A stretch of 64,000 nt of DNA from Prevotella sp. (GCA_031285625.1 JAITVV010000095.1:259282-323281), one strand, 5' to 3'. Positions 7,231 to 57,343 are shown, counted from the stretch's first letter. Made by a program: numbers and translations. The notes: generated from the letters alone by a model not told the origin.

Positions 7231-7312
7231 TAAAATAGAACGTTTTTATATTCAACTGCTAGTATTATTTATCTAAAACTGTCAAGTGAAAAATACAAAA
7301 TTATCTTATTGT

Positions 7313-7591
7313 ATGAATACATTAATGATAATAATAATCCTGCTTGCATCTGTAGTTGCATCCCTGTATTGGGGAATAGTACTGTCTGTAAAACTCCCTT
7401 TGTGGGACAGGCGGTTCAATCGCAAACCATTCAATTGCAGGCCTTGCCTGACATTTCATCTGGTTGCGACATCCGGCAGCTTGTTTGCTCTATTGTTACT
7501 ATCGGTAGAACTATTTCTGGCAGGTATTGCAACAGCTTTCACCGTATTTTTCATTGTAAGATATATTGATAATAAAAAAGTAATAAAATGA
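7313..7591 (+). CDS. Phage-like membrane protein with KPFNCxxC motif
   Basis: About 3 TM with RKPFNCRPCLTF; first of three coupled genes ending in terS. Confidence 0.6.
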   Translation: MNTLMIIIILLASVVASLYWGIVLSVKLPLWDRRFNRKPFNCRPCLTFHLVATSGSLFALLLLSVELFLAGIATAFTVFFIVRYIDNKKVIK

Positions 7592-7872
7592 GCAACGCAT
7601 TAGTAACAGAAGTAAAAAAACTCATTCGGGAGGTAGACAAAACACATCGTTATTCAATGAGCCGTATTTATGGGCTGTACAACGAAGTATTTGATAAGGA
7701 TGAAGAACCACAGTCGTGTGCCAGCTGCCTGATACGCAAGGTAAAAGAGCTCAGGCTGTGGCTGGAAAACAACAGCGGACAGGAAACTGCCGAAGATATT
7801 GAAACTTCAGCCCAACCGAAAGAAAAGAAAGCACAGAAAACAAAAAAGAGTCGTACCGGAAAAGAACAATAA
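7588..7872 (+). CDS. Phage-like hypothetical protein (YNEVF...SCASC)
   Basis: Overlaps both neighbours; CxxC motif of the type I recall upstream of terminase genes in Bacteroidetes phages. Confidence 0.6.
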   Translation: MSNALVTEVKKLIREVDKTHRYSMSRIYGLYNEVFDKDEEPQSCASCLIRKVKELRLWLENNSGQETAEDIETSAQPKEKKAQKTKKSRTGKEQ

Positions 7873-8357
7873 TGGCACGTGGACAAAAAAAATGTTATAC
7901 CAACAGGGGCTGTGACGGCGAGGAACTGATATATCAGCAGCCTAAAGACTTGCTGTCACAGGCTTACAAATATTTTGACTGGTGCAACGACAATCCCTGG
8001 CATAAGCAGGAACTGATAAAGTCGGGTACCAGAGCCGGGGAACTTATTGGGATACCGATTGTCCGGCCATATACACTGGAGGGACTGTGTGTATTCTGCG
8101 GGATAAGTACCGGTACCTTCTGCCATTATGAAGAAAGAGAAGATTTTGTTGCAGTGACAACACATCTGCAGGAGATCATCCGTCAAAACCAGATTGAGGG
8201 AGAATGTATAGGAGCATACAATACTGCAGTTATAAACAAAATACAGGGATTAGCTGACAAACAGGAAGTAAATATGCCTACAGGACTGACCATAAATGTG
8301 ATTTCGCCTGAGGCCAAAGACAATCTGGAAGCACTTAAAGAATCCCTGTCCAAGTAA
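7872..8357 (+). CDS. Terminase small subunit (P22 gp3-like DNA-packaging protein)
   Basis: AYKYFDWCNDNPW, RPYTLEGLCVFCGIS, GAYN...GLADKQEV resemble the GP3_package family. Confidence 0.82.
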   Translation: MARGQKKCYTNRGCDGEELIYQQPKDLLSQAYKYFDWCNDNPWHKQELIKSGTRAGELIGIPIVRPYTLEGLCVFCGISTGTFCHYEEREDFVAVTTHLQEIIRQNQIEGECIGAYNTAVINKIQGLADKQEVNMPTGLTINVISPEAKDNLEALKESLSK

Positions 8358-9771: not shown

Positions 9772-10299
9772 ATGAAGCACGAACTTACATTTTTCTTCTT
9801 ACTTTTTTTATTTTATCTAAGCCCGGCCAGAGCTCAGGATAATAAAACTATGGATGAGCTGCCAAAAGAACTGATATCTGTATGGGATCCTATTACCCGA
9901 GTTCCAGGTATTGCTACTCTGTTTCATTATGGAAGTGAAATATTACTATATCCTAATCCGGTTGTATACGAAACAGGATACACAAATTGTGTATATGCAG
10001 AAACTAAAAACGGTGAATCACACCTTACAAGAAGCAAACATTTCACATACTATATATTGGAAGCTATAGTCAATGCAAGACAAACAAATGAAACAAATAA
10101 AGCAACTATAGCACAGGATTTTACAGAGAAGCTAAGTGGAGCGGAAAGTTCGCTTTCTGCTTATGACGCAAAATTAATTAACAGGCTTATAAACAAGATT
10201 GCCTATGCCAAACAAAAAAGAGCAGACGCAACAATGGACTATGATATCATAGACGCCATTGTAGATAAATGGTATAACGGAATCAGTTCAGAACTGTAA
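9772..10299 (+). CDS. Hypothetical secreted protein
   Basis: Signal peptide ending ARA-Q. Confidence 0.6.
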   Translation: MKHELTFFFLLFLFYLSPARAQDNKTMDELPKELISVWDPITRVPGIATLFHYGSEILLYPNPVVYETGYTNCVYAETKNGESHLTRSKHFTYYILEAIVNARQTNETNKATIAQDFTEKLSGAESSLSAYDAKLINRLINKIAYAKQKRADATMDYDIIDAIVDKWYNGISSEL

Positions 10300-10483
10300 A
10301 CCAGAGTACGAGCGCAAGAATTGCAACAGCCAGAGATGACATGAACAGATATCCACCAAGTCTGTCCAGTGATTTCGTTTTTTGGGGATGACTGTGTTCT
10401 ATAAAGCCCGAGGCAAACCATACCGCAAGGCTTGAGAACAACAGTAGTGAAGTGATAATTATAACTATAAATACGATGTACAT
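10283..10483 (-). CDS. Small two-TM membrane protein
   Basis: 66 aa with two hydrophobic segments. Confidence 0.45.
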   Translation of the reverse strand: MYIVFIVIIITSLLLFSSLAVWFASGFIEHSHPQKTKSLDRLGGYLFMSSLAVAILALVLWFTVLN

Positions 10484-10614
10484 AATTATTGCAATTGTAA
10501 CAATATTATAACACAGCTGTTTATTAATTGTTTTTTTATATAACTATTTTTAATTAAAAACGAGAAAATCAAATAAATAGATAATATCCACAAACTAATT
10601 TACAAACTAATTAG

Positions 10615-11301
10615 ATGAAGACAAGTAACCTTTTCAGGCACTTATTTTACCTGCCGTTTGGTATAGTGCTGTTAAGTTGTAGCTCAACACAAAACATGCA
10701 ACCGGGCCGTTTGATAGAAGGCTATGTAACAGATGTTAATGGCTTTCCAGTACGGAATATATGTATTGAATCACCTCAGGTAATTCAACACATAGGACAC
10801 ACTGACTATAATGGAAAATATAGCCTGTGGGTGCAAGATAAGGATGAGGTACAACTCACCTTTCACAGCAGGTACAACAAGTTGCCGGACTATGACGGTG
10901 CCCTCGAGATCGACGATTATGAGGCACAGGAAATACTGGTAAGACGCAGCGATACGCTGGTGAATATAATGATAAAGAAAACTGCCGATCGCGAACGTTG
11001 GGATTGGCTGATAGATGATGAACTAAGCCGTGCCCGCTATATAGAAGGGCATGTAAATTGTGAAAGCGGGGAAGCGCTCAGACCATTGATATGGGTAGAG
11101 GGCTTGCCATTTGTACCAAGGGAAACGCCTTTTTTCACATACGGAGACGAAGAAGGGTATTACCGGATAGCCATTCCTAGCAGGGACGAAGTCAGAGTAG
11201 TTTTCAGACAGGCAGGTTATGCACATGAAAACCTGATACTGAAAGAGAACTTTTCAGATAAAATAGATATTCAATTGAAGGTAAAAGCATCAGATATTTA
11301 A
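10615..11301 (+). CDS. Lipoprotein with two carboxypeptidase-regulatory-like domains
   Basis: Lipobox LLSC; repeated IEG.V....G.P...TD..G.Y pattern. Confidence 0.7.
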   Translation: MKTSNLFRHLFYLPFGIVLLSCSSTQNMQPGRLIEGYVTDVNGFPVRNICIESPQVIQHIGHTDYNGKYSLWVQDKDEVQLTFHSRYNKLPDYDGALEIDDYEAQEILVRRSDTLVNIMIKKTADRERWDWLIDDELSRARYIEGHVNCESGEALRPLIWVEGLPFVPRETPFFTYGDEEGYYRIAIPSRDEVRVVFRQAGYAHENLILKENFSDKIDIQLKVKASDI

Positions 11302-16063: not shown

Positions 16064-16162
16064 AATGGTTATAATTTAGTGTGCCAAAGGTAGAAAAAAG
16101 AATTAAAGAAAGCCTCCTTTTGAGGGGAGGCTTTTGGTTGAGGGTAATATTTGGTTAGGTTG

Positions 16163-17407
16163 TTAATCCAAACCAATGCCTTCGCCAGGTATACCTGTAC
16201 CCGAAGTCGGATTGTTTCTGCCTGTGTATGTAATAGAGTTTGTAGTACCACATACATTGCTTGTAGTACAGGTGATATTGAAAACACCTTCTTTTTTACC
16301 TGTATATCCTGTCATAATCTTGCCATATTGGTTTATTGGTTTTGCATCACCTGTTACTTTCCATACTGTGTTAGATGTATTAGCGCCATCTATTTTAGCG
16401 GAGAAAATATAAGAGGAGTTTTGCTCATACCAGCCACTACTTGATGGTGGGAGAATCTGAACTGACGGCTTACCTACCCAAACAGATGAATTTTCCACAG
16501 TGTAACTTTTACCATCATAAGTAACTATTGCTTTAATTTTTCCATATCCGTTACCTGATGCTTTAAATGTAGCTGTTGCTGTACCTTGCCCGGAGGCTAA
16601 AGTCATATTGGAAATAGGTTGCCAGTTGATGTTTGAGGCAGAAGGCTCTAATTTATATGAACCATTCTGGTTTGCACAAAGAATAGTGGCAGTTGTCGAA
16701 ACAGTATGTTTAGGATGTATTTTTACTATTTTTTGACCCTCATAATAGTAATCTTTATTAAGATAGCCATTAGATTTGTATGCTGTAGCTTTTATTATAT
16801 AACTTGTATATATATTCTGTTTTGCTCTTATCGTTACAATTTGGTTATGAATGGGGATGTAATGCTTGGGATCACTCGTGTTCTTAATAGATATTATATC
16901 AAATAAATTCTTATCTATCTCGACATTTGGAGCTGCATATCCTGATACAGAAGCAATACATTCAACAGTCTCTCCAAATAGTATATAGTCAGGACACATA
17001 ATAGTAACTTTTCCATATATCGATTCTGGTTTTTCCGTTTGACTTGCTGTAATCTTTACCTTGTATGTTTTCATATTTGCAGGTAAATCCCCTTGCTTAT
17101 AAGCCACAATCTTTGCATCATTAGTAGCTGTATTACCCCAAGTTACAAAGAAATCATGCTTAAGACTACCTTTTTTCACCTGTTCAACTCTAGCAGTATC
17201 TTTACTGTTGTTAAAAGTTCCATATTTTCCAGTTCTAATAATAAAATTTGTTTCTTGTGCTAACCCAGAACTGAAGTTTAGTGAATACATCCATGTTTCT
17301 CCAGTAACAACATTTTGATTTCCCATAATATCTCTGATTTGCCCCCATGCAAATCCAATAGAAATTGATGTTAATAATAATACCATTAAAATTTTCTTCA
17401 TAAGCAT
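16163..17407 (-). CDS. Secreted protein with Ig/PKD-like domains
   Basis: Signal peptide; SGQGTATATF...VWVGKP beta-sandwich pattern; low GC. Confidence 0.65.
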   Translation of the reverse strand: MLMKKILMVLLLTSISIGFAWGQIRDIMGNQNVVTGETWMYSLNFSSGLAQETNFIIRTGKYGTFNNSKDTARVEQVKKGSLKHDFFVTWGNTATNDAKIVAYKQGDLPANMKTYKVKITASQTEKPESIYGKVTIMCPDYILFGETVECIASVSGYAAPNVEIDKNLFDIISIKNTSDPKHYIPIHNQIVTIRAKQNIYTSYIIKATAYKSNGYLNKDYYYEGQKIVKIHPKHTVSTTATILCANQNGSYKLEPSASNINWQPISNMTLASGQGTATATFKASGNGYGKIKAIVTYDGKSYTVENSSVWVGKPSVQILPPSSSGWYEQNSSYIFSAKIDGANTSNTVWKVTGDAKPINQYGKIMTGYTGKKEGVFNITCTTSNVCGTTNSITYTGRNNPTSGTGIPGEGIGLD

Positions 17408-17511
17408 AATCTTTTTAAATTAATAATTAAATATTCACCGTCCCATATCCGGATTAGGGACTTATACTATAAGACAATTTTGTTAAAGAATCTTTACTGA
17501 TTTTGTGGTCA

Positions 17512-18117
17512 TCAGACTAATTCTTCCCTACGTTTCTTAAACTCTTTGTTGGCGCGTACACCTTTCTTTATCTTGGAGATAGCACGTTGGATATTATGTT
17601 CCCTTATTCCGGTAATGTCGGCCAGAGATGCATAGTTTATAGCAGGTTTCAGGTTGATATACATCTTGAAGAGCTCGAAGTCGCGAATACTGTAATTCTT
17701 GTACACATAATCGAAGATATCCTTCTCCAACTTTTGCTGTTTGTCTTGCAGCTCGGCAAAATACTGGGTATCGGTATCTGCTTTATCATAGTGGGGTAGC
17801 AGCTCGCAGTAACGGTTTTGCTTAATACCGTTTGCCATCAGGTTAGTAAAATAGGAACGTACAAAATAATACCTGTAATTCTCCACATTGGTTCCCGTAT
17901 AAAGGATATTTTCGTACATTTTGAGATAACTCTCGCTGAAAACATCGCAATCGAAATAATTGCGCACTGTCAGATACTGTATCACTTCCTTGTTGTTTTC
18001 TACAAACCAAACGTTAAATGCTTCCGCCTTTTCGGCATAAACAACGTCCTGTACTCCCTCTTTTTTCTTAAAGTATTTCTTACCCTTGTTACTTCTGTTA
18101 GTATTGAATAGCAGCAT
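17512..18117 (-). CDS. Phage-type sigma-70/ECF-like transcription factor
   Basis: Region-2-like DVFSESYLKMYE..YFVRSYFTNL; region-4 HTH YASLADITGIREHNIQRAISKIKK; last gene of the replication operon. Confidence 0.65.
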   Translation of the reverse strand: MLLFNTNRSNKGKKYFKKKEGVQDVVYAEKAEAFNVWFVENNKEVIQYLTVRNYFDCDVFSESYLKMYENILYTGTNVENYRYYFVRSYFTNLMANGIKQNRYCELLPHYDKADTDTQYFAELQDKQQKLEKDIFDYVYKNYSIRDFELFKMYINLKPAINYASLADITGIREHNIQRAISKIKKGVRANKEFKKRREELV

Positions 18118-18274
18118 GATCTAAGTTTTTATATTCTACACATTCCGGACAATAATCACATTCATTTACACATATATAGCCGACATTGAACAATGTCTGG
18201 GGATCCTGTACAGTCACTTCTGCCGAACAATTGTCGCAGACGACTTTTATGTACTCCTGGTCTTTAATTTTCAT
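18098..18274 (-). CDS. Small Zn-finger-like protein (58 aa, absent from the ORF track)
   Basis: Translated by hand: MKIKDQEYIKVVCDNCSAEVTVQDPQTLFNVGYICVNECDYCPECVEYKNLDHAAIQY; overlaps the start of the sigma-like gene. Confidence 0.6.
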   Translation of the reverse strand: MKIKDQEYIKVVCDNCSAEVTVQDPQTLFNVGYICVNECDYCPECVEYKNLDHAAIQY

Positions 18275-18382
18275 TGGTTATACTTTTAGATTAGTTAGTT
18301 AATCCATTCTTTCAGAGACAATAAGGGCTCCCGGCTATGTTTACAGCCGCTCTTATTTTTCATTTTTAATTATTAATTCTTA

Positions 18383-18970
18383 TTACTTTCTCAGGCTTTG
18401 CCCTCTGAATTTGATACGTCTTGTAGTAGATACTATACGTTCCATTACCCGCTGCCCGTATCGTCCGGCTATCTCATCTCCCCGCAGGTTGGTAGAAATA
18501 ATGATGAGTTTTCCGTACTTCTCGGCTGCGTCCATTACTTCGGCAAAGGCTTGCCGCTTGTTGCCATAATTGACAGAAATATCTTCCGTGCCAATATCAT
18601 CGAGGCTGATCACGTGTTTTTTAAGTACATCGTCTATGTATTTATTCATCTCCTGCACATCGTACACCGACACCACTTTGCGCGTATATTTCAGTATGAT
18701 GGCAGGCAATATATAACGGGTGAGCAGGCTTTTGCCACGTCCGCAGTCACCATACAGAAACAGCCCCCGCCCCTCGTTGTCGGCCAGCCATTCGGCCACC
18801 TGATTGTATTCGGGCTGCCACAGCAAATCGACCCCCTCATAGGCAAGAAAATATTTGAAACAACTTTCGAGTACAGCCATCGGATTTTGCAGCTGTATGG
18901 CTACGCGCCGTGTTGGCAATTGCATACCATGCACACGCATCTGTTCGTATATTTGTTCAAAATCGTTCAT
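18383..18970 (-). CDS. DnaC/IstB-like AAA+ helicase loader (phage replication)
   Basis: Walker A GDCGRGKS, Walker B LDDIG, IISTNL, RYGQRVMER; coupled to the initiator. Confidence 0.85.
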   Translation of the reverse strand: MNDFEQIYEQMRVHGMQLPTRRVAIQLQNPMAVLESCFKYFLAYEGVDLLWQPEYNQVAEWLADNEGRGLFLYGDCGRGKSLLTRYILPAIILKYTRKVVSVYDVQEMNKYIDDVLKKHVISLDDIGTEDISVNYGNKRQAFAEVMDAAEKYGKLIIISTNLRGDEIAGRYGQRVMERIVSTTRRIKFRGQSLRK

Positions 18971-19508
18971 CTGTCGTTGGTTTTATATGTACTTGCGTAT
19001 CCCTGTTCTCCCATGTGCGGACTGCTGCCCGCCAGTCTTTCATCTTGTTTTTCCCTATCATCCAGTCTTTTGCTGTATAGAAGTTTATAAACTGATGCGG
19101 ATCAACTCCATTATTCCTTTTCCGGCAATAGCTTTCCACTTCCTGAGGCTGAGGAGGCAAGAAGATTATTTTCTCTTTACGGCTCGTTTTTTTAGTTTTG
19201 CTTTCGCTCTCTGTTATACTTACCTTATCACAGAATAAAAGTGTGTATACCGGCGATTTCTTTTTACGCTGCCCTGCCTCAAAAGAGATTAAATTTTTTT
19301 GCTGCAACTTGCTTCTTGCCTCTATCAGTGTTTTTTCTGAAATACTGATAGAAGAAGTGATCAGTCCGTTAGAACATTCGAAAGGATTTTCCCAGTTGCG
19401 GATATTCGACTCCTGCATCAAAAAGTAGTACAAGTCCGCCTCACTGGACGTAAACCTCATCCTGCGCCGTGCTTGCCAAAACTGATTTATAAGCTCTATG
19501 TAATTCAT
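18957..19508 (-). CDS. Phage replication initiator / replisome organiser
   Basis: N-terminal winged-helix-like MNYIELINQFW..EADLYYFL; C-terminal PP...EV..YC...FINFY...W..GKNKMKDWRAAVRTWE; short linker. Confidence 0.8.
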   Translation of the reverse strand: MNYIELINQFWQARRRMRFTSSEADLYYFLMQESNIRNWENPFECSNGLITSSISISEKTLIEARSKLQQKNLISFEAGQRKKKSPVYTLLFCDKVSITESESKTKKTSRKEKIIFLPPQPQEVESYCRKRNNGVDPHQFINFYTAKDWMIGKNKMKDWRAAVRTWENRDTQVHIKPTTDERF

Positions 19509-19843
19509 ATATATGTGAATCTGTCTTCCAGTATATCATAAGCCTGTTCGCCCGCCTCTTTTCCGTTACGGTTGTATTCTTCTATAATCGGCTTCAGGCG
19601 CGAGGTCAACACGGCAGTATCTTCATACAGCAAGTCCCATTCATCATCCAGTACTTCAGACGCTTTCACGTTTACGGTATCCATATAGGCATCGAATGAT
19701 ACACAAACTCGTATATCGCCTATAACATCGTCAAAATCTGTCACATCCATCTCATCAGAATTGTATAAATGACTCGTAATGGATTTTATTATGCTACTCA
19801 TTTGTGTTTCATTGCAATAGCAATCAATTTTTAACGCTCCCAT
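19505..19843 (-). CDS. Hypothetical acidic protein, first gene of the replication operon
   Basis: 112 aa; overlaps the initiator start; divergent from the repressor; no HTH. Confidence 0.65.
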   Translation of the reverse strand: MGALKIDCYCNETQMSSIIKSITSHLYNSDEMDVTDFDDVIGDIRVCVSFDAYMDTVNVKASEVLDDEWDLLYEDTAVLTSRLKPIIEEYNRNGKEAGEQAYDILEDRFTYI

Positions 19844-19917
19844 TTTTCTGCCATTTTAGTTGCGAGTTTCTATTTATTTTCTTTTATTTGATTGGTAATT
19901 ACCTTTACAATACAAAT

Positions 19918-20103
19918 ATACACAATTATGTGAATACAACATACACATATCAGTGAATATTTATGTTAATAAATGTTAGTTTGTTGTATTTGAATAAGTA
20001 AGCGTTTATCTTTGGTAATTCATTATGTGTAAAAGAAGTAAATAAAAATATAAGGATATAATCCTTTTTTGAAAAGCAAAGTAGAATACACAAAAGAGTG
20101 AAT
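19918..20103. promoter_or_regulatory. Three operator-like 18-bp boxes ATACAC-N6-GTGAAT
   Basis: ATACACaattatGTGAAT 19918-19935, ATACACatatcaGTGAAT 19941-19958, ATACACaaaagaGTGAAT 20086-20103, in the divergent repressor/replication intergenic region. Confidence 0.75.
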
Positions 20104-20104
20104 C

Positions 20105-20842
20105 ATGGAAGCATATGAGAGAATCAGGAAAATCAGGGAGGATCTGTTTAAAGGATCAAATATTGAGTTTGCAAAGGCAATAGATGAAAAACCCAACACT
20201 ACCAGCAACTGGATGAGTGGAAATCGCAAGATAGGGCTCGAAGTACTTGAAAAAATACTGGCGCGCCTGCCCCAGATAAGTTCAAGTTGGCTGGTGTCGG
20301 GAGAAGGGCCGATGATAAAAACAGATTCGGGCAAGGAAGAGCCTTACCTGATCACCAAATCGGGGGTAAAATATTTTCAGTTGCCTAACGGTAAGTTTCT
20401 GATGCGTGTACCTTTTGTTCCAGTGAAGGCATACGCCAAGTATGTAGACGAACACAGGGATGCTGAGGCCGCCGAACCGCTGGATGAATACAATTTTATA
20501 GTAGACCAGATAGGGCACGGATGCTATATGGCCTTTGAGATAAAGGGCGACAGCATGGATGATGATACACGTAAAAGTCTCGGCAATGGCGATATCGTTT
20601 TGGGGCGTGAACTGGGGCCGGAGCACTGGAAGGATAAACTGCACACCAATGAGTATCCTAACTGGGTGATTGTATTAGACAACACAATCTTGTGTAAGCA
20701 GATTGTAGATCAGGATGTGGAGAGGGGGGTTATTACCTGCCATTCGTTGAATCCTTCACCTGAATATTCAGATTTTGAGCTAAGCTTTAATGATATTCGA
20801 CAGATGTTCAATATTATACAGAGAGTGTCGAATATGATATAA
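20105..20842 (+). CDS. CI/LexA-like repressor (XRE HTH plus S24 peptidase domain)
   Basis: N-terminal HTH, SWLVSGEGPM linker, catalytic GDSM Ser and LCKQI Lys, HSLNP. Confidence 0.88.
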   Translation: MEAYERIRKIREDLFKGSNIEFAKAIDEKPNTTSNWMSGNRKIGLEVLEKILARLPQISSSWLVSGEGPMIKTDSGKEEPYLITKSGVKYFQLPNGKFLMRVPFVPVKAYAKYVDEHRDAEAAEPLDEYNFIVDQIGHGCYMAFEIKGDSMDDDTRKSLGNGDIVLGRELGPEHWKDKLHTNEYPNWVIVLDNTILCKQIVDQDVERGVITCHSLNPSPEYSDFELSFNDIRQMFNIIQRVSNMI

Positions 20843-20843
20843 C

Positions 20844-21188
20844 ATGGCAAAATATAAGAAAACCAGTTTCATTGGGTTGCTCATACTGATATCTATTTAC
20901 ATGCTTATTTCCGTATCTTTAAACAAATGTGTAGAAAACAGACAAAAGGGAGCAGAGTATAGAGGAGTATTGAATGAAGTTTTTAGGGATGAAAATAACA
21001 GATATACACATACCTACAAAATTCAAACTGATAATGGAATCATTAATCAAGTAGTTATTTCTTATAGTAAGAGTTTAGATTATGTAGAAATTGGAGATTC
21101 TATTATTACAGAAAAAGGAAAGCTGGAAATAATCATTAGGAAGAAAAGTTCCAATTATAATACTTATGCAGTTTTTCCTTATGAATAA
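20844..21188 (+). CDS. Hypothetical membrane-anchored protein
   Basis: N-terminal TM; low GC; starts 1 bp after the repressor. Confidence 0.55.
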   Translation: MAKYKKTSFIGLLILISIYMLISVSLNKCVENRQKGAEYRGVLNEVFRDENNRYTHTYKIQTDNGIINQVVISYSKSLDYVEIGDSIITEKGKLEIIIRKKSSNYNTYAVFPYE

Positions 21189-21197
21189 TGCGCTGGT

Positions 21198-22367
21198 TTA
21201 CACTGTCTCTTTATAAATACCCAGCACTTCTTCTACATTCTTCAGCCATCCCTGAAAATCGAAGCGGGCTACAGCTTTATCCAGATCGGTGCTATATTTT
21301 ACCGACAGGGTAGGATCGTCAAGTACCATCTTCATTCCTTGATAGACACCTTCGGCACTATTGTCGACAAGGATGCCGTATTTGCCGCCATCGACGATAT
21401 CGCGTGGGCCTCCACAGTCGGTAGTGATAACAGGGGTACGCAGCGCCATAGATTCGAGCAATGCCAGAGAAAAACTTTCCCTCTCGGAAACGCACAACGA
21501 CCATTTACACTGCAATATATACGGGAAAGGGTTCTCGATACGGCCATACAGTGTAATATTATCTGTAAGGTTGAGCCCGGTTAATGAATCATGCATCGAC
21601 TGGCTGTTCATACCTTCACCTATAATATAAATATGAAAAGTATAACCTTCTTCTTTCAACCGGCCGGCAGCATTCAGCAACCTGTCGGTACGCTTTTCGG
21701 GTGATATACGTGTTATCAGTATAAAGTTGGTATGCCCCTGAGGAAGGTCTTCGATCGGTTGTTTTGCCTTTTCGGCTGCAGTGGACAGATCGATGGCATT
21801 GTACAATACTACAATATCCTTGGGCATGCTGCCATCATGCAAAACATTCAGATAGGCATTCCGGGCAGCATCGGAAACACAGATTACCTTATCAAATTTG
21901 TCATAAGACTTTTGCACCCTTTTTATTTGCTTCTTATTTAGCCAGACCGACAACTTTTCGCGCGTGGTATTTGCTTCATATTTTCGTTTGTAGAGTATAT
22001 TATGTATCCACAACACTTTAGGCACTTCCATCTTACTGAATATGCGGGCAAAGAATGTTTCTTTGAAGCAGACTATTTCGTCATAATCGGCAGCTTTTAT
22101 ACCTTTCCTTTTAGCAAAGATGCGGGGAAAGAATATCATCAGGTTTTCGCCGATCTTCTTTTTCAGATGCGATGTATCTTTTTCATAGATATACTTTACA
22201 TGTACCCGCCACGACAGGTCGCGGAGTAATATATTCCGGTCGGATGGTTCGGGCAAAAGCAGTGTGATGGCACATTCTTTGGTTACCAGGTGATTAAGCA
22301 GGCTGACAAGGAGCTTTTCCGTTCCTCCCATTTCCATGCTGTCATTGAAAAATAGAATGCGTTTCAT
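21198..22367 (-). CDS. Glycosyltransferase family 4
   Basis: GGTEK, RISPEK, ESFSLALLESMAL, TDCGG motifs. Confidence 0.9.
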   Translation of the reverse strand: MKRILFFNDSMEMGGTEKLLVSLLNHLVTKECAITLLLPEPSDRNILLRDLSWRVHVKYIYEKDTSHLKKKIGENLMIFFPRIFAKRKGIKAADYDEIVCFKETFFARIFSKMEVPKVLWIHNILYKRKYEANTTREKLSVWLNKKQIKRVQKSYDKFDKVICVSDAARNAYLNVLHDGSMPKDIVVLYNAIDLSTAAEKAKQPIEDLPQGHTNFILITRISPEKRTDRLLNAAGRLKEEGYTFHIYIIGEGMNSQSMHDSLTGLNLTDNITLYGRIENPFPYILQCKWSLCVSERESFSLALLESMALRTPVITTDCGGPRDIVDGGKYGILVDNSAEGVYQGMKMVLDDPTLSVKYSTDLDKAVARFDFQGWLKNVEEVLGIYKETV

Positions 22368-37742: not shown

Positions 37743-38168
37743 CTATTTTCTTATCCACTTAAAGCACAGATAACCAATAATAAAAAGCAACAATATCCGT
37801 CCACACCATATCTGAAACGACTGAAATGACGAAAGCCTGTTTACTTCCTGATACTCAACCACCGGATAAGGTACGGATATACTATCTACTTTGAATATAG
37901 AATCCCTTACCAGCTTGTCGCGATACAAATACCTGAATTTTTCGAGCCATACGGTATCACCTTTCATCTTTATCAATACAGAATCGTACAGATGAACAGA
38001 ATCGCGCAATACTTTGTCACGGTATTCTACTTTTACGGTTTCTACAGGAACATATACAGTATTAGTTTTGCAACTGCCAAACAGACATAGCAGAAGTATG
38101 GGGATGAAGATGTTGCGGAGTGAAATTATAAAAGAAATGCTTTTATCGTTTGTAATTATCTCTAACAT
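37743..38168 (-). CDS. Putative unimolecular spanin (lysis lipoprotein)
   Basis: Lipobox LFGSC, beta-rich RDS-repeat periplasmic part, C-terminal TM; follows the endolysin. Confidence 0.65.
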   Translation of the reverse strand: MLEIITNDKSISFIISLRNIFIPILLLCLFGSCKTNTVYVPVETVKVEYRDKVLRDSVHLYDSVLIKMKGDTVWLEKFRYLYRDKLVRDSIFKVDSISVPYPVVEYQEVNRLSSFQSFQIWCGRILLLFIIGYLCFKWIRK

Positions 38169-38204
38169 AATCTTTTGTTTTTAATTTTATTATTGTATTT
38201 ATAC

Positions 38205-38288
38205 TGTCATTCTTCGTTTCACTCACAATCTCTTTCCTCTTTCCATGACAAAATGAGCCGGGATGCTTCTTCCTACGTCAGCATGACA
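38205..38288. repeat. REP-like palindromic element
   Basis: TGTCATT...GGATGCTTC.TCCTACGTCAGCATGACA between endolysin and spanin. Confidence 0.75.
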
Positions 38289-38312
38289 AAATTTCTCAAA
38301 AATGAGTAAAAC

Positions 38313-38834
38313 TCATTCTGTGAACTTAAAATCGTTAATACGGTTTATCCATCCCTTACGGAATTTCCTGTTAGCTGGTCGCGAGTGAACGATTCTCTCT
38401 ATAAAGTCGAACCTTTCCTGCTTTATCTTACGGAATAGTTCTTTCTGATCGGGATAAGTGTTCACCGCCGCAAGTGTTCTGGATCCTACCACTCCGTCTG
38501 TTGCTACCTTCAGTATCTTTTGTGGCAGCTTAATTCCATAACCTCCCGATGCCCATACCCAGTCGACCAGGATATTAGCAACCGGCTGACTGTTTATATT
38601 ATCTGCCAGCCACTTATCCCAATACAGTGTTTTGAGTACATCGAGCCATTCGGCATCTGAGATATTCTTCAGGTCGCTGATGGTAGTCACCCGATACCCG
38701 TTCCGGCGGCGATAAAGGCTATAGGTACCTATGGTAATCCCTTTGTTGGTAGCTCCGCCCAGATCGGAAGGATCATTAACATAACCTCCTTCCCACTTCA
38801 GTATGATCGGAACAAGTTTATTTATATCAGCCAT
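38313..38834 (-). CDS. Endolysin, glycoside hydrolase family 108 with PG-binding domain
   Basis: EGGYVNDPSDLGGATNKGIT catalytic motif; DGVVGSRT; FRKGWINR. Confidence 0.92.
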   Translation of the reverse strand: MADINKLVPIILKWEGGYVNDPSDLGGATNKGITIGTYSLYRRRNGYRVTTISDLKNISDAEWLDVLKTLYWDKWLADNINSQPVANILVDWVWASGGYGIKLPQKILKVATDGVVGSRTLAAVNTYPDQKELFRKIKQERFDFIERIVHSRPANRKFRKGWINRINDFKFTE

Positions 38835-39321
38835 TGTCTTTATCCTTTCTGAAATAATCTCCCAAATGTTTTATCTTTTCTACAAACTTGACCGATAATA
38901 CCCAATACAGAAATGATACGACTTCGTTTTTAGGTTGTATTACTTTCCAGTTGCGAAGGATATTGGTCCCGTAGAAATAGATAACCACCCATGTGATCCA
39001 GGAGGTAAAATCTACTACCGAGCTGTCTTCCAGATGCATCTTTTTTCCTATAGCAAACGAAAGAAACAGCAAGAGCATAAATCCCACTACATACCACACC
39101 GACTGGAAAGCTTTTTTGAGACTGAAATCGACCCCTCTGGATATATCGGAAAGCAGACCATATAAAAAATTGAGAATGAACAGGATAAAAACAACAAGCA
39201 GAAAATCGTGTATCGGCTGAAAAAAATTTGTCAGCAGGGTTACAAGAAATACCCATACCCCTTTGAGCAGACTGATACAGAGATCCTGCAGTCTTTCGAA
39301 AATATTTATAATGCGTTGCAT
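38827..39321 (-). CDS. Putative holin
   Basis: Multi-TM protein overlapping the endolysin start; F..KKAF, YFYGTNILRN motifs; start set at MQRIIN. Confidence 0.7.
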   Translation of the reverse strand: MQRIINIFERLQDLCISLLKGVWVFLVTLLTNFFQPIHDFLLVVFILFILNFLYGLLSDISRGVDFSLKKAFQSVWYVVGFMLLLFLSFAIGKKMHLEDSSVVDFTSWITWVVIYFYGTNILRNWKVIQPKNEVVSFLYWVLSVKFVEKIKHLGDYFRKDKDNG

Positions 39322-39379
39322 AGTGATATAGTTATATATGATTGTATTATCTTTACATTTTAAAAAATTATTAAAATCC

Positions 39380-40093
39380 ATGAAGAGGACTTTGCTTTTG
39401 CTTATCATTGCTATCTGTCTTTACAGTTGTAACAAGAATGAATCACCCAACCTGATAGTTAAGAAATGGGTTGCAGTGGGAAACTCTATAACTTGGCATC
39501 CAATCAATAATAATTGGGCTGGAGAGTGGGGAATGGCTGCAACCTCTATAGAAAATGACTATGTTCATATCCTCAATCAAAATTTTAAAAACAATTTTGA
39601 TAGTGTGAGTTTCAAAATAGATTGGGCTGTAGATTGGGAAACCAATCATCCAAACTACGATTTGTCTTATTTTGACAAGTTCTTTGATGGAGATGAGGAC
39701 TTAGTCGTAATTAGGCTCGGGGAAAATGTGAAAGACACAACTAACTTTGAGGCTGATTTTAGACACCTTATCCAACATTTAAAACATCTATCTCCTAATG
39801 CTAAATTCGTTATTACAGGAATATTTATGTCTGACAGTAACGATTTAAAATACAAGGAAACTATACAGAAAAAGATTGCTAAATCAGAAAACTGTATATG
39901 GGTTCCAATTAATCAACTAGACACTAAGGAAAATAGGAACTTTATAGGTAATACCGTCAATGGACGTACCATAGAAAACCAAGCAGTTGCTGATCATCCG
40001 GGAGACAAGGGTATGGAAGCCATTGCAGAAGTTATATTTGAATCGCTACAAAAAAAAGGTAAATCAATTCTTACTCTGTCTGCCATTCGTTGA
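39380..40093 (+). CDS. SGNH/GDSL hydrolase lipoprotein
   Basis: Lipobox LYSC; GNSITWH, LGEN, DHPGDKG motifs. Confidence 0.85.
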   Translation: MKRTLLLLIIAICLYSCNKNESPNLIVKKWVAVGNSITWHPINNNWAGEWGMAATSIENDYVHILNQNFKNNFDSVSFKIDWAVDWETNHPNYDLSYFDKFFDGDEDLVVIRLGENVKDTTNFEADFRHLIQHLKHLSPNAKFVITGIFMSDSNDLKYKETIQKKIAKSENCIWVPINQLDTKENRNFIGNTVNGRTIENQAVADHPGDKGMEAIAEVIFESLQKKGKSILTLSAIR

Positions 40094-40180: not shown

Positions 40181-40375
40181 ATGAAATATTTTGTCGATGT
40201 TCAAGATGAAGATGCACTTATATCCAACGGGGTGTATAATGTTGTAATCTGTAAGAAATTCCTATTTTTAAACATCCGGATTCGCCATATTGGTTCTTTT
40301 AATGAAAGTAACCTTTCAGAGAAAAATGATCTAATCAACAAAGCTAACCGGTATTGTTCTATTTACAACTTATAA
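40181..40375 (+). CDS. Small hypothetical protein
   Basis: Short low-GC ORF convergent with the tail fibre gene. Confidence 0.35.
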   Translation: MKYFVDVQDEDALISNGVYNVVICKKFLFLNIRIRHIGSFNESNLSEKNDLINKANRYCSIYNL

Positions 40376-42115
40376 TAAAGCCTTTACCCTATTGCCAAAT
40401 ACTCGCGCAATTTTTATGTGTGCAGATTCTGTTATATGCACACCATCGACTGGAGCATAAACATTTAGGTTCCCTGAGAAAATGCCTATTTCATTATATA
40501 CGTCATAAATAGGAATTGAAAGCCATTTACAGATTATTCGTTCTACTTCCCTGTATTGTTCTATATTTGCGAGGTTTGTAGGCGCAGGAGTCATACACAC
40601 AATTCTGGCTTCGGGTACTTTCCTTACCAAAGTCTCCATACATTTACGGTATGCATCGGAGAAATTATCTGTCAATGTAAGAGAGTCAAAAGCTTTACTT
40701 AAAGTTGTATTCGCATCACCTACGGTTCTGCGCTGCCAACAGTCATTTGTACCGATCATTATAGTAACAAGCCCTTTGAAATCGGTAGGAATCTGATTTA
40801 TTTGAAGTATTAAACCATCATCCCCCATTGCCATTTTACCACCTATTGCAAGGTTTGTAAAAGGCATGCCGAACTTTGCAGCCATTTTCACAGCCCAACT
40901 ATTCGCGCCCTCGGTTAAACTGTCACCACATGCGTAATAATCCAATTTTTCGACTGGATTAGCATCATCGATCACGTTCGAAACGGGTATGTATAAGTTT
41001 GGAATAACTATATTTTTGCCTGCATTTTTTTTCTTGATATAAAAACCGTCAAAAATTGATGTCCTACCATTAAATCGAATATAAGCACAATTTATCGGTG
41101 TGGTAAAATCACCGAAAGGACTACTATTTGAGGCGACTCCATTATTTGTGATAAACCTCTTTTCCGAATCGTAAAATAAAAACATCGGATTAAGGTTAAC
41201 AAGGTTTGTAGTGTATTCTATTCCCGGCTCAATAGGTAAATAGTCAATTGTATATTTATAGTCACCACTAGAAACAGCATTCCAATTGTTAAGAAATCCA
41301 TTACCCATGTTTAAAGTAGCAGGCAAAATATTTCCTGAGTTACTTTCTACCTCTACCTCGAACGCGCCCCGCATATCTTCTACGCCCAGATCGACAGCCA
41401 ATTTCTTTATTACGTTTGATTCAGGGGAAGGATATATATAAATCTGTGAATTTTTACCAATATTGGGCATATAATTATATCTGACAAAAGCACAGTTAGC
41501 AGGCGTTGTAAATATTCCTCCCCAAACAGTTGTGCGAGTACCGAATGATGAACCGATAAAGGTTTTATTTGCATCATAAAAAATAAAACGTTGATCATCT
41601 TGCGCCTTTACAGAGTTACACATATATGTTACGTTTGGCTGTACTGGCACATATATTTGGTTATATGATATTTGATCTGTGAAACGCGCTTTTTGTTCAA
41701 CGCCATTGGCATCCAGAAAATAGTCTACAATATTTGAGTAGCTTGGTACAAGATTATTATACTCAAATACTTCAAGATTTGAAGTATAATTGATTCCCTT
41801 AATATTAAGAACCATCTGCTGATTTTTCCCTATTTCATCAGTAAACAACTTCAAGCTCGGGGCTTTTACTGTATCCTGCCCTGTTTCTTGCGAAACGGCA
41901 ATGACGCTGGGCACACCCGTATCCGCCGTGCCAACCCACCAGTTGTTGTTAGTACCCACAAAGGGCGCATCCCCCTTGTCTCCCTTGTTACCTTTGAGCA
42001 GATTGATCGGGACTTTCACCGAATTATCGTTCTTGTCGGTACCCAGCGTATACAAGTTTTCGATCGTTGTAGCCTCAGGTAACTCCGATATTATTTTTTT
42101 CTTTATTTCTTCCAT
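40370..42115 (-). CDS. Tail fibre / receptor-binding protein with C-terminal SGNH esterase
   Basis: N-terminal ISELPEA..KGNKGDKGDAPFVGTNNNWWVG anchor/collagen-like segment; two FYD..K.FI...FTTP.NCA..R modules; GDSL, GTND, DGVH; start overlaps the upstream gene. Confidence 0.75.
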   Translation of the reverse strand: MEEIKKKIISELPEATTIENLYTLGTDKNDNSVKVPINLLKGNKGDKGDAPFVGTNNNWWVGTADTGVPSVIAVSQETGQDTVKAPSLKLFTDEIGKNQQMVLNIKGINYTSNLEVFEYNNLVPSYSNIVDYFLDANGVEQKARFTDQISYNQIYVPVQPNVTYMCNSVKAQDDQRFIFYDANKTFIGSSFGTRTTVWGGIFTTPANCAFVRYNYMPNIGKNSQIYIYPSPESNVIKKLAVDLGVEDMRGAFEVEVESNSGNILPATLNMGNGFLNNWNAVSSGDYKYTIDYLPIEPGIEYTTNLVNLNPMFLFYDSEKRFITNNGVASNSSPFGDFTTPINCAYIRFNGRTSIFDGFYIKKKNAGKNIVIPNLYIPVSNVIDDANPVEKLDYYACGDSLTEGANSWAVKMAAKFGMPFTNLAIGGKMAMGDDGLILQINQIPTDFKGLVTIMIGTNDCWQRRTVGDANTTLSKAFDSLTLTDNFSDAYRKCMETLVRKVPEARIVCMTPAPTNLANIEQYREVERIICKWLSIPIYDVYNEIGIFSGNLNVYAPVDGVHITESAHIKIARVFGNRVKALL

Positions 42116-42678
42116 AATTCTAAAATTGGTATACAATAACCATCTTCTGTTGTTACCAGATTTACTTTATCTTCAGTACTCAATAATGACTCTATAACTG
42201 TTTTGTCCGGTGCTGCCTCGAATAAGGGGTAGATTGACTTTTTAGTAATAGTGATACTATATCCTGCCGTTTCGCCTCGCTGCCCCGTTTGTTGAGTATA
42301 ACTAAGGGTAGCGCCGCCATCAGAGCCAAATGAGAACATCTTGCCTTGCGAAGAGAATACTATCAGGTACTTATTCACTTTGGTTAGCAACAGGCTGGCT
42401 GTTTTCTGATAATCCAGTGACCTTACGAATGTTGTTATTGCTTGTGTATATATTCCGTTGTCCTGATTTTCGGTAAAATTCGATTCATCCACAACATCAA
42501 GCCTGATATAATCCTGTGCGGATATCTTGATGCTGTCAATAAAACATTGATCATACAGCTTATCATCTCTAAACCGATAACTTACAAAGTCCCGGATATC
42601 CAAAAGATAAATTTCTGATATACCCCCCGGATTATACTCACACGAGTGCTTTATATTTTGGATTAATCTACAATTCAT
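42103..42678 (-). CDS. Tail-tube-like structural protein (paralog 2)
   Basis: M.C.L..NI...C.Y..GGI..IYL N-terminus shared with 42842-43378. Confidence 0.6.
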   Translation of the reverse strand: MNCRLIQNIKHSCEYNPGGISEIYLLDIRDFVSYRFRDDKLYDQCFIDSIKISAQDYIRLDVVDESNFTENQDNGIYTQAITTFVRSLDYQKTASLLLTKVNKYLIVFSSQGKMFSFGSDGGATLSYTQQTGQRGETAGYSITITKKSIYPLFEAAPDKTVIESLLSTEDKVNLVTTEDGYCIPILELWKK

Positions 42679-42682
42679 AATT

Positions 42683-42831
42683 AATTCGAAAATTAGCAGA
42701 TTTGAAAATTAGCAAATAACTTGTCTCTGATTTGTCATAGGAAGCATCCCGACCCGTTTTTCAAGGAGAAAAGAAAAGAGATGCTTCGTTGCCTCAGCAC
42801 AGAAGCCATCATTGCTAATTTTCAAATTTGC
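42683..42831. repeat. Degenerate REP-like element flanked by AATTAGC-unit inverted arrays
   Basis: Core 42733 to about 42801; AAATTAGCAGATTTGAAAATTAGCAAAT pairs with ATTGCTAATTTTCAAATTTGC. Confidence 0.7.
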
Positions 42832-42841
42832 CGATTGATAC

Positions 42842-43378
42842 TTACGGAGTTATCACTGTTTTGTCCACTATTGCTGTGATCACGCTTTCGTCTTTCAGCA
42901 GGCGTCCTATCTCCAGTTCTGTGCCGGCAAGTGTAACCGTCCACCCGTTGGCATCGGCATCGGCTGCACCCGAAGCATAATTAAAGGCTGTGGCACTCAG
43001 TCCGTTGTTACGGCCAAGCATAATAGAACGGTTGTTCTTATCTACCACTACCGCTGTGAACTTACCCAAGCTAAGCTTATCGCCCTGATTAATAATAGTA
43101 TAATTATATTCACTCAATGTAAAGTTTACAGTATGCGTGCGATACTTGCCACCATTGCCATTCTGAGCCAGTTCGTCAGAAAATGAAGCTGTACTGTCAA
43201 TGAAATCAATACTATATGCTTTTGCCGAATCAGCCAGCATTATAGTTTCTATTTCCTCATCTGTACCCATTGTATAAGTATTAGCCGGATCGTAGTTGAA
43301 CAAGTACACGGCTTTGATACCTGCTACTGTATAAGCACAGGTTTCTTTTGTGATATTTGATGTTAATTTACAAGACAT
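42842..43378 (-). CDS. Major tail (tube) protein, putative
   Basis: Directly follows the capsid gene; MSCKL...AGIKAVY, SGAADADANGWTVTL; start set at MSC. Confidence 0.65.
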   Translation of the reverse strand: MSCKLTSNITKETCAYTVAGIKAVYLFNYDPANTYTMGTDEEIETIMLADSAKAYSIDFIDSTASFSDELAQNGNGGKYRTHTVNFTLSEYNYTIINQGDKLSLGKFTAVVVDKNNRSIMLGRNNGLSATAFNYASGAADADANGWTVTLAGTELEIGRLLKDESVITAIVDKTVITP

Positions 43379-43407
43379 AGTTTTTATTATTAATTTGTTA
43401 ATAGAGT

Positions 43408-43511
43408 AATTAGCATATTTGAGAATTAGCATATTAGCAAATGGACGCAAAGCAAAAAAACATTGACAATGTCACCATTTGCTAATTTTCGAATTTGCTA
43501 ATCTGCTAATT
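43408..43511. repeat. AATTAGC-unit inverted repeat array
   Basis: TAATTAGCATATTTGAGAATTAGCATATTAGCAAAT...ATTTGCTAATTTTCGAATTTGCTAATCTGCTAATT. Confidence 0.7.
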
Positions 43512-43513
43512 GA

Positions 43514-44461: not shown

Positions 44462-44501
44462 AATTTTGTTTTGATTTGAGAATATGCTGTTTCTAATACT
44501 T

Positions 44502-44583
44502 TGTCATGCTAACAACAGGAAGCATCTCTTGTCTTTTTTCCATGAATAAATGAATCGAGATCCTTCGTTACCTCAGGATGACA
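44502..44583. repeat. REP-like palindromic element
   Basis: TGTCATGCT..CAACAGGAAGCATCTC...GAGATCCTTCGTTACCTCAGGATGACA between protease and capsid genes. Confidence 0.85.
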
Positions 44584-44605
44584 AAAGCCATCAGCATATT
44601 GATTA

Positions 44606-45871: not shown

Positions 45872-45983
45872 TGTCATGCTGAGGCACGAAGCATCCCGAC
45901 CCATTTGTCCATGAAAGCTAACATTACAGGAGCATAGCAGATGGAAAAGAGAAAAGAGGTCCTTCTCTGCGTTCAGGATGACA
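45872..45983. repeat. REP-like palindromic element
   Basis: TGTCATGCTGAGGCACGAAGCATC...TCAGGATGACA. Confidence 0.8.
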
Positions 45984-46060
45984 AGGAAGGGTATGAAGAA
46001 TAAAAATTACCCGAAAATTAATTCCTCTTATTTCTAAAAAAAATCAAAATAAAAAAGAGA

Positions 46061-47112: not shown

Positions 47113-47249
47113 GACTGACTCACAACACAAAATACTTATATAAAAGATACTTTTACCGGGGATATTTTCGTCTCCGGTATTTTTTTGTTATTAAATCTTA
47201 CAGCTTTTTATCTATATTTGATCTTCAAACACAAACAGTAATTTACAAA

Positions 47250-54360: not shown

Positions 54361-54397
54361 TCTCCCTTTTTATCATCTTCCCACAAAATTATCTATA
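54361..54397 (+). promoter_or_regulatory. Candidate late promoter upstream of the tail chaperone
   Basis: TCTCCCTTTTTATCAT-N13-TATCTA. Confidence 0.55.
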
Positions 54398-54418
54398 AGT
54401 AACAAATTTAATTTACTT

Positions 54419-57331: not shown

Positions 57332-57343
57332 TCTTACCCTCTT

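Follow-up and report, generated by a model that had tools for sequence, protein, structure and literature searches.

Introduction

The gene transfer agent of Bartonella (BaGTA) consists of a run-off replication (ROR) module and of Bgt loci for capsid, packaging and lysis, and represents a chimera of two phages (10.1101/2024.11.20.624540; PMC2697382), while the coupling factor BrrG is a Q-like antiterminator (10.1101/2024.11.20.624540). In Rhodobacter capsulatus (RcGTA), the activator GafA is described as acting through the omega subunit of RNA polymerase and as displaying local sigma likeness only (PMC9638019). Lateral transduction was reported in Bacteroidales in 2026 (PMC12946183), and the same source lists gene transfer agents (GTAs) for Alphaproteobacteria, Desulfovibrio, Brachyspira, Methanococcus, Bacillus (PBSX) and a new Faecalibacterium element, with lateral transduction as the only entry for Bacteroidota (PMC12946183). 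Here, we analyse a six-gene block at positions 17512-20842 of a 64-kb stretch of Prevotella sp. DNA (GCA_031285625.1 JAITVV010000095.1:259282-323281), the whole of which (64,000 nucleotides) is referred to below as the window; in this block a predicted repressor gene, CI245, diverges from an operon that ends with the gene of a sigma-like protein, p201.

With moderate confidence, we read this module as the control and replication part of a vertically inherited, integrase-less, fragmented, GTA-like system of phage origin with a sigma-like late activator. The block may thus represent the switch, DNA-replication and late-gene-activator part of a GTA-like particle system not yet described in the phylum. 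Literature searches returned no GTA report for this genus in the full texts covered, and none among the titles and abstract openings listed for Bacteroidetes and Bacteroidales; among the records retrieved for prophage, terminase and the genus, the sole match was a termite virome survey.

Results

Anatomy of the switch module

Comparisons were made with 24 same-genus genomes, with 16 genomes representing as many other families of the order, and with 120 genomes from 21 genera of the family. The subject region, 17512-20842, comprises six open reading frames (ORFs), which are given here with the adjoining non-coding features:

20105-20842, plus strand: CI245, predicted CI/LexA-like repressor with an XRE-type helix-turn-helix (HTH) and an S24-like C-terminal domain
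19918-19935, 19941-19958 and 20086-20103: three operator-like sites, ATWCAC-N6-GTGWAT, in the spacer between CI245 and unk112
19505-19843, minus strand: unk112, acidic 112-aa protein of no family, first gene of the operon
18957-19508, minus strand: init183, DnaD-like candidate replication initiator or helicase-loader partner
18383-18970, minus strand: DnaC195, DnaC/IstB-type AAA+ helicase loader
18098-18274, minus strand: Zn58, 58-aa Cys-rich ORF with four Cys pairs
17512-18117, minus strand: p201, divergent two-domain sigma-70/ECF (extracytoplasmic function)-like protein, candidate late-gene activator
17440-17461, minus strand: palindrome I3, 87% complementary, just 3' of the p201 stop, a possible operon end

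An earlier note on this stretch had described a repressor gene divergent from five ORFs, and this arrangement was borne out, as all six ORFs are present at these positions. Residues 7-63 of CI245, the HTH, match PF01381 (HTH_3) with 24 bits, just above the cut-off of 23 (E 4.1e-5), its C-terminal half reaches 17.1 bits with PF00717 (Peptidase_S24), which is under the cut-off of 23.3, and residues 3-232 match phrog_4, 'transcriptional repressor' (3.2e-15). For init183, matches were obtained to phrog_19658, 'replication initiation protein' (4.1e-7), and phrog_186, 'DnaD-like helicase loader' (2e-5), its top PHROG matches being families without known function, and none in Pfam, NCBIfam or PDB sequences. 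DnaC195 matches phrog_3277, 'DnaC-like helicase loader' (1.2e-26), and phrog_50 (9.5e-17), a GxxGxGKS Walker A motif is readable in its sequence, and homologues with 56-70% identity occur at 15 loci; its matches to the NCBIfam DnaI and IstB models lie far under their cut-offs, and a search of PDB sequences was empty. The first gene of the operon, unk112, has no Pfam family, a weak match to phrog_4827 alone and a best score of 0.83 in a protein language-model atlas, which is too low to use; it is present in 16 of 19 related loci, with a ratio of nonsynonymous to synonymous substitution rates (dN/dS) of 0.075-0.13.

The earlier description of the module as minimal and of the operon as five-gene holds for this genome only; the conserved operon is unk112-init183-DnaC195-p201, and in most relatives c6-c11-terS follows immediately behind p201. 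Zn58 has no counterpart at the same position in 18 related loci and is therefore either lineage-specific or no gene at all; its match to DUF1272 (3e-4) is under the cut-off. Palindrome I3 was not scored as a terminator by an E. coli-type promoter and terminator scan, which is uninformative for this phylum.

The same note had remarked on the lack of Cro and integrase and on flanking host genes, and on both points the present results agree. None of the 30 genome matches to the tyrosine integrase family PF00589 falls in the window, the nearest on the contig being approximately 228 kb away (serine recombinases were not searched), and no HTH family match suggestive of Cro was obtained, two low-complexity ORFs (47-50 aa) in the 262-nt intergenic region being untested. 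No tRNA gene lies within the 64 kb. On one side the module is flanked by genes for a PKD-like lipoprotein, an Fe-S assembly protein and an LpxH-like protein, and on the other by those for a GT1 glycosyltransferase, ferrochelatase and mannose-6-P isomerase, all of host type. The module is no ordinary prophage remnant.

Contigs of related strains (approximately 98% identical, three runs) skip a 114-aa membrane-protein gene that follows CI245 (20842 to 21220; gene at 20844-21188), and one related contig skips a PKD-like 414-aa gene beyond p201 (16148 to 17384; gene at 16163-17407). The genes abutting the module are thus strain-variable, while 17387-20842 stays one block.

p201 as a candidate late-gene sigma factor

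Searches with p201 gave no Pfam or PHROG match and, by tblastn, no match among 50,697 phage records. Against TIGR02937 a colinear alignment over residues 33-187 was obtained, at E 0.004 and 16.8 bits against a cut-off of 42.9. An AlphaFold2 (AF2) model built with 30 homologues, with a mean predicted local distance difference test (pLDDT) score of 80.7, consists of two helical domains joined by a low-confidence linker, corresponding to sigma-2 and sigma-4 folds in that order. In Foldseek, the top eight of eight rows were sigma factors or their complexes, ECF sigmas scoring E 0.03-0.3 and none reaching E<=0.001. VIA-align, which is independent of Foldseek, also ranked sigma factors first: region 4 gave Z 8.2-9.0 over 69-82 residues with a root-mean-square deviation (rmsd) of 2.7-3.0 (sigma-H region 4, Z 9.0 over 73 aa, rmsd 2.9; SigE region 4, Z 8.6), whole ECF sigmas aligned over approximately 150-160 residues (full-length SigL, Z 8.5 over 160 aa), and the N-terminal domain of SigR gave Z 7.1 for residues 23-98, although in this method helical folds can commonly yield Z values of less than about 13, and those of p201 are 8-9. 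Additionally, the language-model (atlas) score of p201 to viral sigma-70/ECF clusters is 0.96-0.97, one source names a 53%-identical homologue 'RNA polymerase sigma factor [Caudoviricetes sp.]', and its dN/dS is 0.008-0.12. We regard it as quite likely that p201 is sigma-like. The earlier label of a sigma-like protein is therefore retained on grounds of fold and language-model likeness, though not of sequence, in which no match was significant.

The last gene before terS is the usual place of phage late activators. The position of p201, last before terS, fits a late-gene regulator, as does that of its homologue (70% identity) in L104, a 60-kb viral contig of IMG/VR, where it lies after early-type ORFs. 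In this densely packed contig the homologous gene (10001-10624) stands between large early-type ORFs and small ORFs, and only four other ORFs match the present genome, weakly and none of them in the window; as L104 has little else in common with it, a p201-type regulator gene moves between unrelated phages.

A promoter-like motif ahead of the phage-derived operons

Further phage-derived parts of the window are as follows:

7268-7277, plus strand: TTTATCTAAA, preceding the c6-c11-terS operon
7286-7591, 7588-7872 and 7872-8357, plus strand: c6, c11 and terS, one operon (GP3_package 7.2e-18, phrog_606 6.7e-28)
37743-39408, minus strand: lysis cassette of a holin-like gene, a GH108 endolysin and a spanin-like gene
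40370-45769, minus strand: capsid region, with p202 and p191
40370-42136, minus strand: tail-fibre-like SGNH protein
43514-44461, minus strand: major capsid protein
44606-45769, minus strand: protease/scaffold of the XkdF type
47207-48065, plus strand: p271, with an exact TTTATCTATA at 47207-47216
52334-53425, minus strand: portal protein (PF04860, 40.2 bits, above the cut-off)
54388-54397, plus strand: motif of p253, at the start of a span reaching from 54388 to 63621
55218-56720, minus strand: p500 ORF, inside the p253-p882 span and not assigned to the system
56783-63621, plus strand: p182-p157-p559-TerL-p882, with the motif at 56749-56758; the contig ends at 64000
59783-60955, plus strand: TerL (Terminase_3 and Terminase_3C; phrog_2, 1.5e-33), the sole Terminase_3 match in the genome
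60973-63621, plus strand: p882, a conserved 882-aa protein following TerL

A recurrent box, TTATCTATA, was recognised in an alignment of the DNA upstream of TerL from 21 genomes. Exact copies within -150 to +30 of the start were counted ahead of first genes, i.e. TerL (12/21), the protease gene (10/15), c6 (6/9), unk112 (7/16) and the holin type (3/9), and ahead of internal genes, where the box is all but lacking (DnaC195 0/15, init183 0/14, terS 0/8, p202 0/14, p191 0/14, capsid 1/15, p882 2/16 and CI245 0/4). Among all fetched loci the box occurs in the 150 nt upstream of 42 of 827 ORFs, and 38 of these 42 are system genes (from a list read by eye), the other four being two M3 peptidase genes, one neighbour of TerL and one unknown. 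As it is so rare among non-system ORFs (4 of approximately 750), TTATCTATA cannot be a promoter in general use across the genus. A second conserved box, TGCATTTT, stands approximately 20 nt upstream of TTATCTATA in 11 of 14 capsid-operon promoters, these promoter motifs are conserved amid diverged intergenic DNA, and TTATCTATA precedes unk112 in species in which the CI gene is not adjacent. In the window, with at most one mismatch, the box stands before c6 (7268), p271 (47207, exact), p253 (54388, core exact) and p182 (56749), the last of these being the first gene of the TerL operon. A genome-wide weight-matrix scan gave 151 matches spread over the genome, too many without the support of orthologues, and the regulon was therefore defined from orthologous upstream regions.

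A number of results weigh against p201 as the activator of this regulon and against the proposed system. None of 30 p201 family members matches a Pfam sigma family at E<=0.05, the best PDB sequence match of the p201 profile is unrelated (E 0.14), and hhalign against six host ECF sigmas returned a probability of 7.8%, yet with the region-4 helix-turn-helix aligned. Within the clade of the window, the motif of the capsid operon is interrupted (TTATCTtATtATA in the window, TTATCTcATA in the G019 and G022 relatives), and the switch operon of the window has no TTATCTATA. In 7 of 16 genomes the box precedes the operon that encodes p201. Furthermore, genomes G004 and G007, in which p201 was not found, retain TTATCTATA before TerL, or before the gene preceding it, and the motif is thus not strictly dependent on the presence of this protein. 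The persistence of the box in G004 and G007, its place before the p201 operon and the lack of a significant sequence match to sigma families would suit a regulon that is real while p201 is not its activator. The box might then be recognised by a sigma or other factor of the host, or by another protein of the module such as unk112, with p201 serving, for instance, as a DNA-binding regulator of the replication module. We consider this rather unlikely, given that the model accommodates both sigma domains in the right order, that p201 occupies the place of late activators before terS, and that so few non-system ORFs carry the box.

The repressor family and its operator-like sites

The pattern ATWCAC-N6-GTGWAT has three exact copies in the 64 kb, all in the CI245-unk112 spacer, a count that is no independent test since the pattern was derived from these same sites. 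When up to one mismatch is allowed, six copies are found against 0.83 expected, five of them within the module, and none of 100 shuffles reached six. The third site (20086-20103) abuts the start codon of CI245. Similar sites occur in G019 and G022, while other species display GTTCAA-type and AATATTTTACTATATT-type repeats upstream of unk112 (weak, and read by eye). The confinement of these predicted CI operators to the switch fits a hierarchy leading from repressor to activator to structural operons.

Orthologues of CI245 (84%) adjoin the module in G011, G019 and G022, and homologues of 58-65% identity lie elsewhere in 19 more same-genus genomes, giving 22 of 24. In this family of 245-aa proteins the C-terminal two-thirds are highly conserved and the N-terminal HTH is of two types, that of the window adjoining the module in the former three genomes and the other occupying a host context in the latter 19. 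In G003, G014 and G024 (L094-L096) the CI245-family gene lies beside the same host gene. The sole near-complete genome without this family, G018, is also without p201, TerL, terS and capsid (a single case).

The sequence GDSM and a downstream Lys are invariant in seven aligned homologues, and these we take, in part from the description in PMC8565304, to be the Ser-Lys dyad. In six of the seven, CI245 included, Ala-Lys replaces Ala-Gly, which is found in G015 alone (the site was placed by eye); RecA-type self-cleavage of CI245 is hence doubtful, a further point against the proposed reading.

The domain plan of an XRE-type HTH plus S24 is common to CI245, whose family is mostly single-copy and genus-wide, and to the non-canonical LexA of Bacteroidetes. 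The identification of CI245 with that LexA was dropped, since both known groups are stated to be absent from Bacteroidales (PMC8565304), and since the LexA motif CTAA-N5-TTAG has no match in the window (GGA-N5-TCC was not searched). The CI245 family is conserved in 22 of 24 genomes of this one genus of Bacteroidales, the order from which the published LexA groups are there reported absent (PMC8565304), and might also control a DNA-damage regulon. A second candidate repressor, a 123-aa gene divergent from unk112 in four genomes (cluster 31), was likewise dropped because its sequence looks like that of a host protein, presumably of the YjbR type.

Distribution, dispersal and selection

Among the 24 same-genus genomes, p201 is present in 19, TerL in 22 (71-78% identity), terS in 13 and the capsid protein in 17 (E<=0.001), 15 of the latter near full length with 73-88% identity; none of the four turned up in the 16 genomes that represent other families of the order. 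Within the family, a p201 profile search identified the protein in 4 of 21 genera (22/24, 10/10, 1/2 and 2/2 genomes) and in none of 82 genomes of the other 17 genera. Public sources name the p201 homologues Dysgonomonas and, in one case, Viscerimonas. Most genomes have a single copy of the system genes. Of 19 loci examined, 15 preserve the operon unk112-init183-DnaC195-p201, and at six of these it runs on into c6, c11 or terS, either directly or past one inserted gene. Similarly, the four-gene capsid operon is kept in 12 of 14 further loci. The flanks of the module elsewhere consist of different host genes and are syntenic within subclades only.

The earlier claim that the structural operons are dispersed was upheld, since the packaging, capsid and lysis operons are separated from the module by host genes. 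In the window's genome the parts span at least 56 kb with core host genes between them, i.e. those for ferrochelatase, mannose-6-P isomerase, elongation factor P (EF-P), M3 peptidase and glycogen branching enzyme. That all parts lie within 41-56 kb of one contig in this genome, G019, G022 and G014, and that a contiguous relative exists on contig C86, would suit an ordinary active temperate prophage in which the interspersed genes are phage cargo. This is extremely improbable: the M3 peptidase is 67-91% identical across the genus and, like EF-P, glycogen branching enzyme and ferrochelatase, belongs to the host core, no tyrosine integrase was found in the window, and in other genomes the parts are up to 490 kb apart. 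In G003, TerL is located at 4.539 Mb, capsid at 5.017 Mb, p201 at 5.030 Mb and terS at 5.049 Mb, and the gap between TerL and p201 is approximately 400 kb in G005 and approximately 135 kb in G020. At such distances (135-490 kb) the loci are too far apart for one phage and would not be packageable as a unit.

In most genomes the core of CI, unk112-init-DnaC-p201 and c6-c11-terS lacks adjoining structural genes and resembles the layout of a satellite of the phage-inducible chromosomal island (PICI) type, which hijacks the capsids of a helper. We nevertheless judge such a satellite very improbable, as genomes with this core also inherit matching genes for TerL, portal, protease and capsid that share its promoter motif, the element is mostly single-copy with a host-like synonymous substitution rate (dS), and neither a PF00589 match nor a tRNA occurs in the window (attachment sites were not searched).

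In matrix comparisons with distances of the host M3 peptidase (Mantel, 2000 permutations), r was 0.59 for TerL and 0.75 for unk112 (both 0/2000), 0.41 for p201 (p 0.0095) and 0.26 for DnaC195 (p 0.05), values that are indications only, as related genomes are not independent. In the unsaturated pair G019-G022, module genes have a dS of 0.24-0.54, the host marker one of 0.26, and dN/dS is 0.008 for p201, 0.025 for CI245, 0.075 for unk112, 0.11 for DnaC195 and 0.17 for init183, with 0.06 for terS, 0.036 for TerL and 0.027 for capsid. Values of 0.05-0.21 were obtained for G003-G017 and G003-G005, the overall ranges being 0.17-0.21 for init183 and 0.11-0.16 for DnaC195. No internal stop was present in the listed matches, save in one terS copy in G017. 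Such low ratios and intact ORFs indicate purifying selection rather than neutral decay.

Losses are nonetheless patchy, which also counts against a functioning system. The capsid gene is lost or truncated in G002, G005, G009 and G015; G004 and G007 (L046 and L038) keep an intact TerL (73-77% identity) and p882 with the promoter box, while p201, DnaC195, terS, protease and capsid were not found there; and G018 lacks p201, TerL, terS and capsid altogether. Together with the scrambled gene order and the lack of an integrase, this pattern is what a cryptic prophage in slow decay, without present function, might leave behind. Given that ORFs are intact across a host-protein divergence down to 67% identity, that each gene tested has a dN/dS of 0.008-0.21 with a dS near that of the host gene, and that the promoter motifs are conserved, we hold decay to be quite improbable. 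The best reading of the distribution is that a phage was acquired once by the ancestor of the genus and a few sister genera, after which its integrase was lost and it was split into separate chromosomal loci.

Proposed mode of action

The anatomy suggests that CI245 would bind the three ATWCAC-N6-GTGWAT sites and hold the leftward operon off. Were repression lifted, unk112, the DnaD-like initiator, the DnaC-like loader and p201 would be made, and p201, as a very divergent ECF-type sigma or sigma-like activator, would direct RNA polymerase to TTATCTATA promoters. Its targets would comprise the terS, TerL and protease-capsid operons as well as the lysis genes. In many species they would also include the switch operon, creating positive feedback. 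The initiator and loader would most likely fire a nearby origin unable to excise, such that copy number would rise beside terS and its packaging site (pac) before packaging; this replication in place, which the earlier note had likewise proposed, is the weakest step of the scheme. The linkage of initiator and loader to terS, which most genomes display, is what a design to amplify and package from this point would need. In its logic (repressor, operators, initiator, loader, late regulator and terS) the proposed system would be lambdoid, and in its present state GTA-like.

The interpretation given in the earlier note is supported in part: its proposal that the switch controls the structural operons gains from their separation, from the common motif and from the confinement of operators to the switch, and loses from the occurrence of the motif before the switch operon and its persistence without p201. 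Other observations likewise speak against the scheme. No convincing iterons or origin were found, weak repeats alone being present in or near init183, and in L105, an IMG/VR contig (9549-10603), unk112 is followed directly by p201, without init183 and DnaC195, so that replication is dispensable in at least one lineage. On the same contig, the capsid operon, lysis genes and CI are contiguous upstream of unk112-p201. Contigs of two RNA libraries, and of one library guessed to be RNA, cover the module and also span host genes; depth and transcription are unreadable from them.

A bolder version of the scheme can be offered tentatively and is on balance doubtful: that this would be the first GTA-like system of Bacteroidota, a podovirus-like machine fixed in the chromosome of one clade of termite/insect-gut Bacteroidales, in which one phage-derived ECF-type sigma acts through a one-box promoter, TTATCTATA, on at least five scattered operons. 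With the phage initiator and helicase loader retained beside terS, derepression would lead to replication of the locus where it stands and to packaging of the host chromosome next to it, making it a dedicated lateral-transduction engine and not a random packager.

Further features and a related element

A model of p882 (pLDDT 73) resembled, only weakly in each case, baseplate hub proteins of contractile systems and the TNF-like receptor-binding protein of one lactococcal phage; p882 was dropped as a portal candidate in view of these matches and of the portal found at 52334-53425. Genome searches with PF03237, PF03354 and PF05133 gave no match, nor did PF12236, for which the controls were silent too. 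A p271 homologue adjoins terS in G019.

The tail-fibre-like gene and the holin are separated by an SGNH/GDSL-type lipoprotein gene (39338-40093) of opposite orientation, and as the listed holin start (39408) overlaps it, the true start is probably near 39321. The intergenic regions upstream of the capsid operon (45880-46010) and of TerL (59590-59750) contain a repeated element (TGTCATCCTGAACG... / ...CATGACAAA) with GC-rich stems, which resembles a miniature inverted-repeat element, occurs also in L034 and L033, and has similar copies in G019.

Contig C86 of genome G000 carries, at approximately 109-144.6 kb, a contiguous same-strand run of approximately 35 kb that is more distantly related to the structural genes of the window (L029 covers 134-147.8 kb). 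It includes p253, p182, p157, p559, p882, p706, protease, capsid (37-38% identity), p202 and a weak portal match, its last gene is a p201 paralogue (27-29% identity), and it reaches close to the end of the contig; a TerL homologue was not found there. The run could represent a true prophage or else a sister element that has undergone less fragmentation. It is one long series of genes and has no separate promoters at which a motif particular to its p201 paralogue might be sought.

Comparison with known systems and significance

GTAs have been characterised in few lineages, and the vertical, selected and fragmented system proposed here would, if true, add a major gut phylum to these lineages. 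It would also represent a third wiring of scattered GTA loci, next to GafA via omega in Rhodobacter and the BrrG antiterminator in Bartonella. Since it comprises one repressor, one sigma-like activator and one 9-nt promoter box, it offers a simple experimental handle, and the retention of replication genes under purifying selection makes the question of whether GTAs amplify what they package testable outside Bartonella.

In the immunity-replication-late region of lambdoid phages, CI and its operators are accompanied by an O/P-type initiator and loader and by a late activator ahead of the terminase genes. The module matches this region in order and logic, as its predicted S24-like repressor gene and three operator-like sites diverge from a series that leads through the candidate initiator and the DnaC-type loader to a candidate late regulator and terS. 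It differs from the lambdoid plan in having no Cro-like gene, integrase or excisionase, in being unable to excise, in keeping its structural genes at other places on the chromosome, and in a late regulator that resembles a sigma factor and not an antiterminator.

Known lateral transduction proceeds from a complete, excision-competent prophage, as a side effect. Here, a replication module beside terS in a non-excising element would similarly replicate in situ and package neighbouring host DNA, but as the sole possible outcome.

In RcGTA, the activator is not known to be accompanied by a repressor or a replication module. RcGTA with GafA, and the Caulobacter agent CcGTA, are described as multi-locus GTAs under one dedicated, positively autoregulated factor with sigma-like parts that acts at -10/-35 (PMC9638019, PMC6363796, PMC11150451), in which they resemble the present proposal. 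The sigma likeness of GafA is local, whereas p201 is modelled as a whole two-domain ECF-type sigma, a comparison by description and not by sequence.

Amplification has been shown for Bartonella, while the present system is read from gene content. BaGTA is, like the proposed system, a genus-wide domesticated phage element in which the replication module is set apart from the capsid, packaging and lysis loci, and the structural locus of each would be turned on by a regulator whose gene belongs to the replication module. The two differ in phylum and in the regulator, the antiterminator BrrG in the one and the sigma-like p201 in the other. Furthermore, BaGTA is a chimera of two phages, whereas the parts described here look like those of one phage, the relative on C86 having the same gene families. 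By analogy of design, BaGTA would thus be the closest functional analogue of the module.

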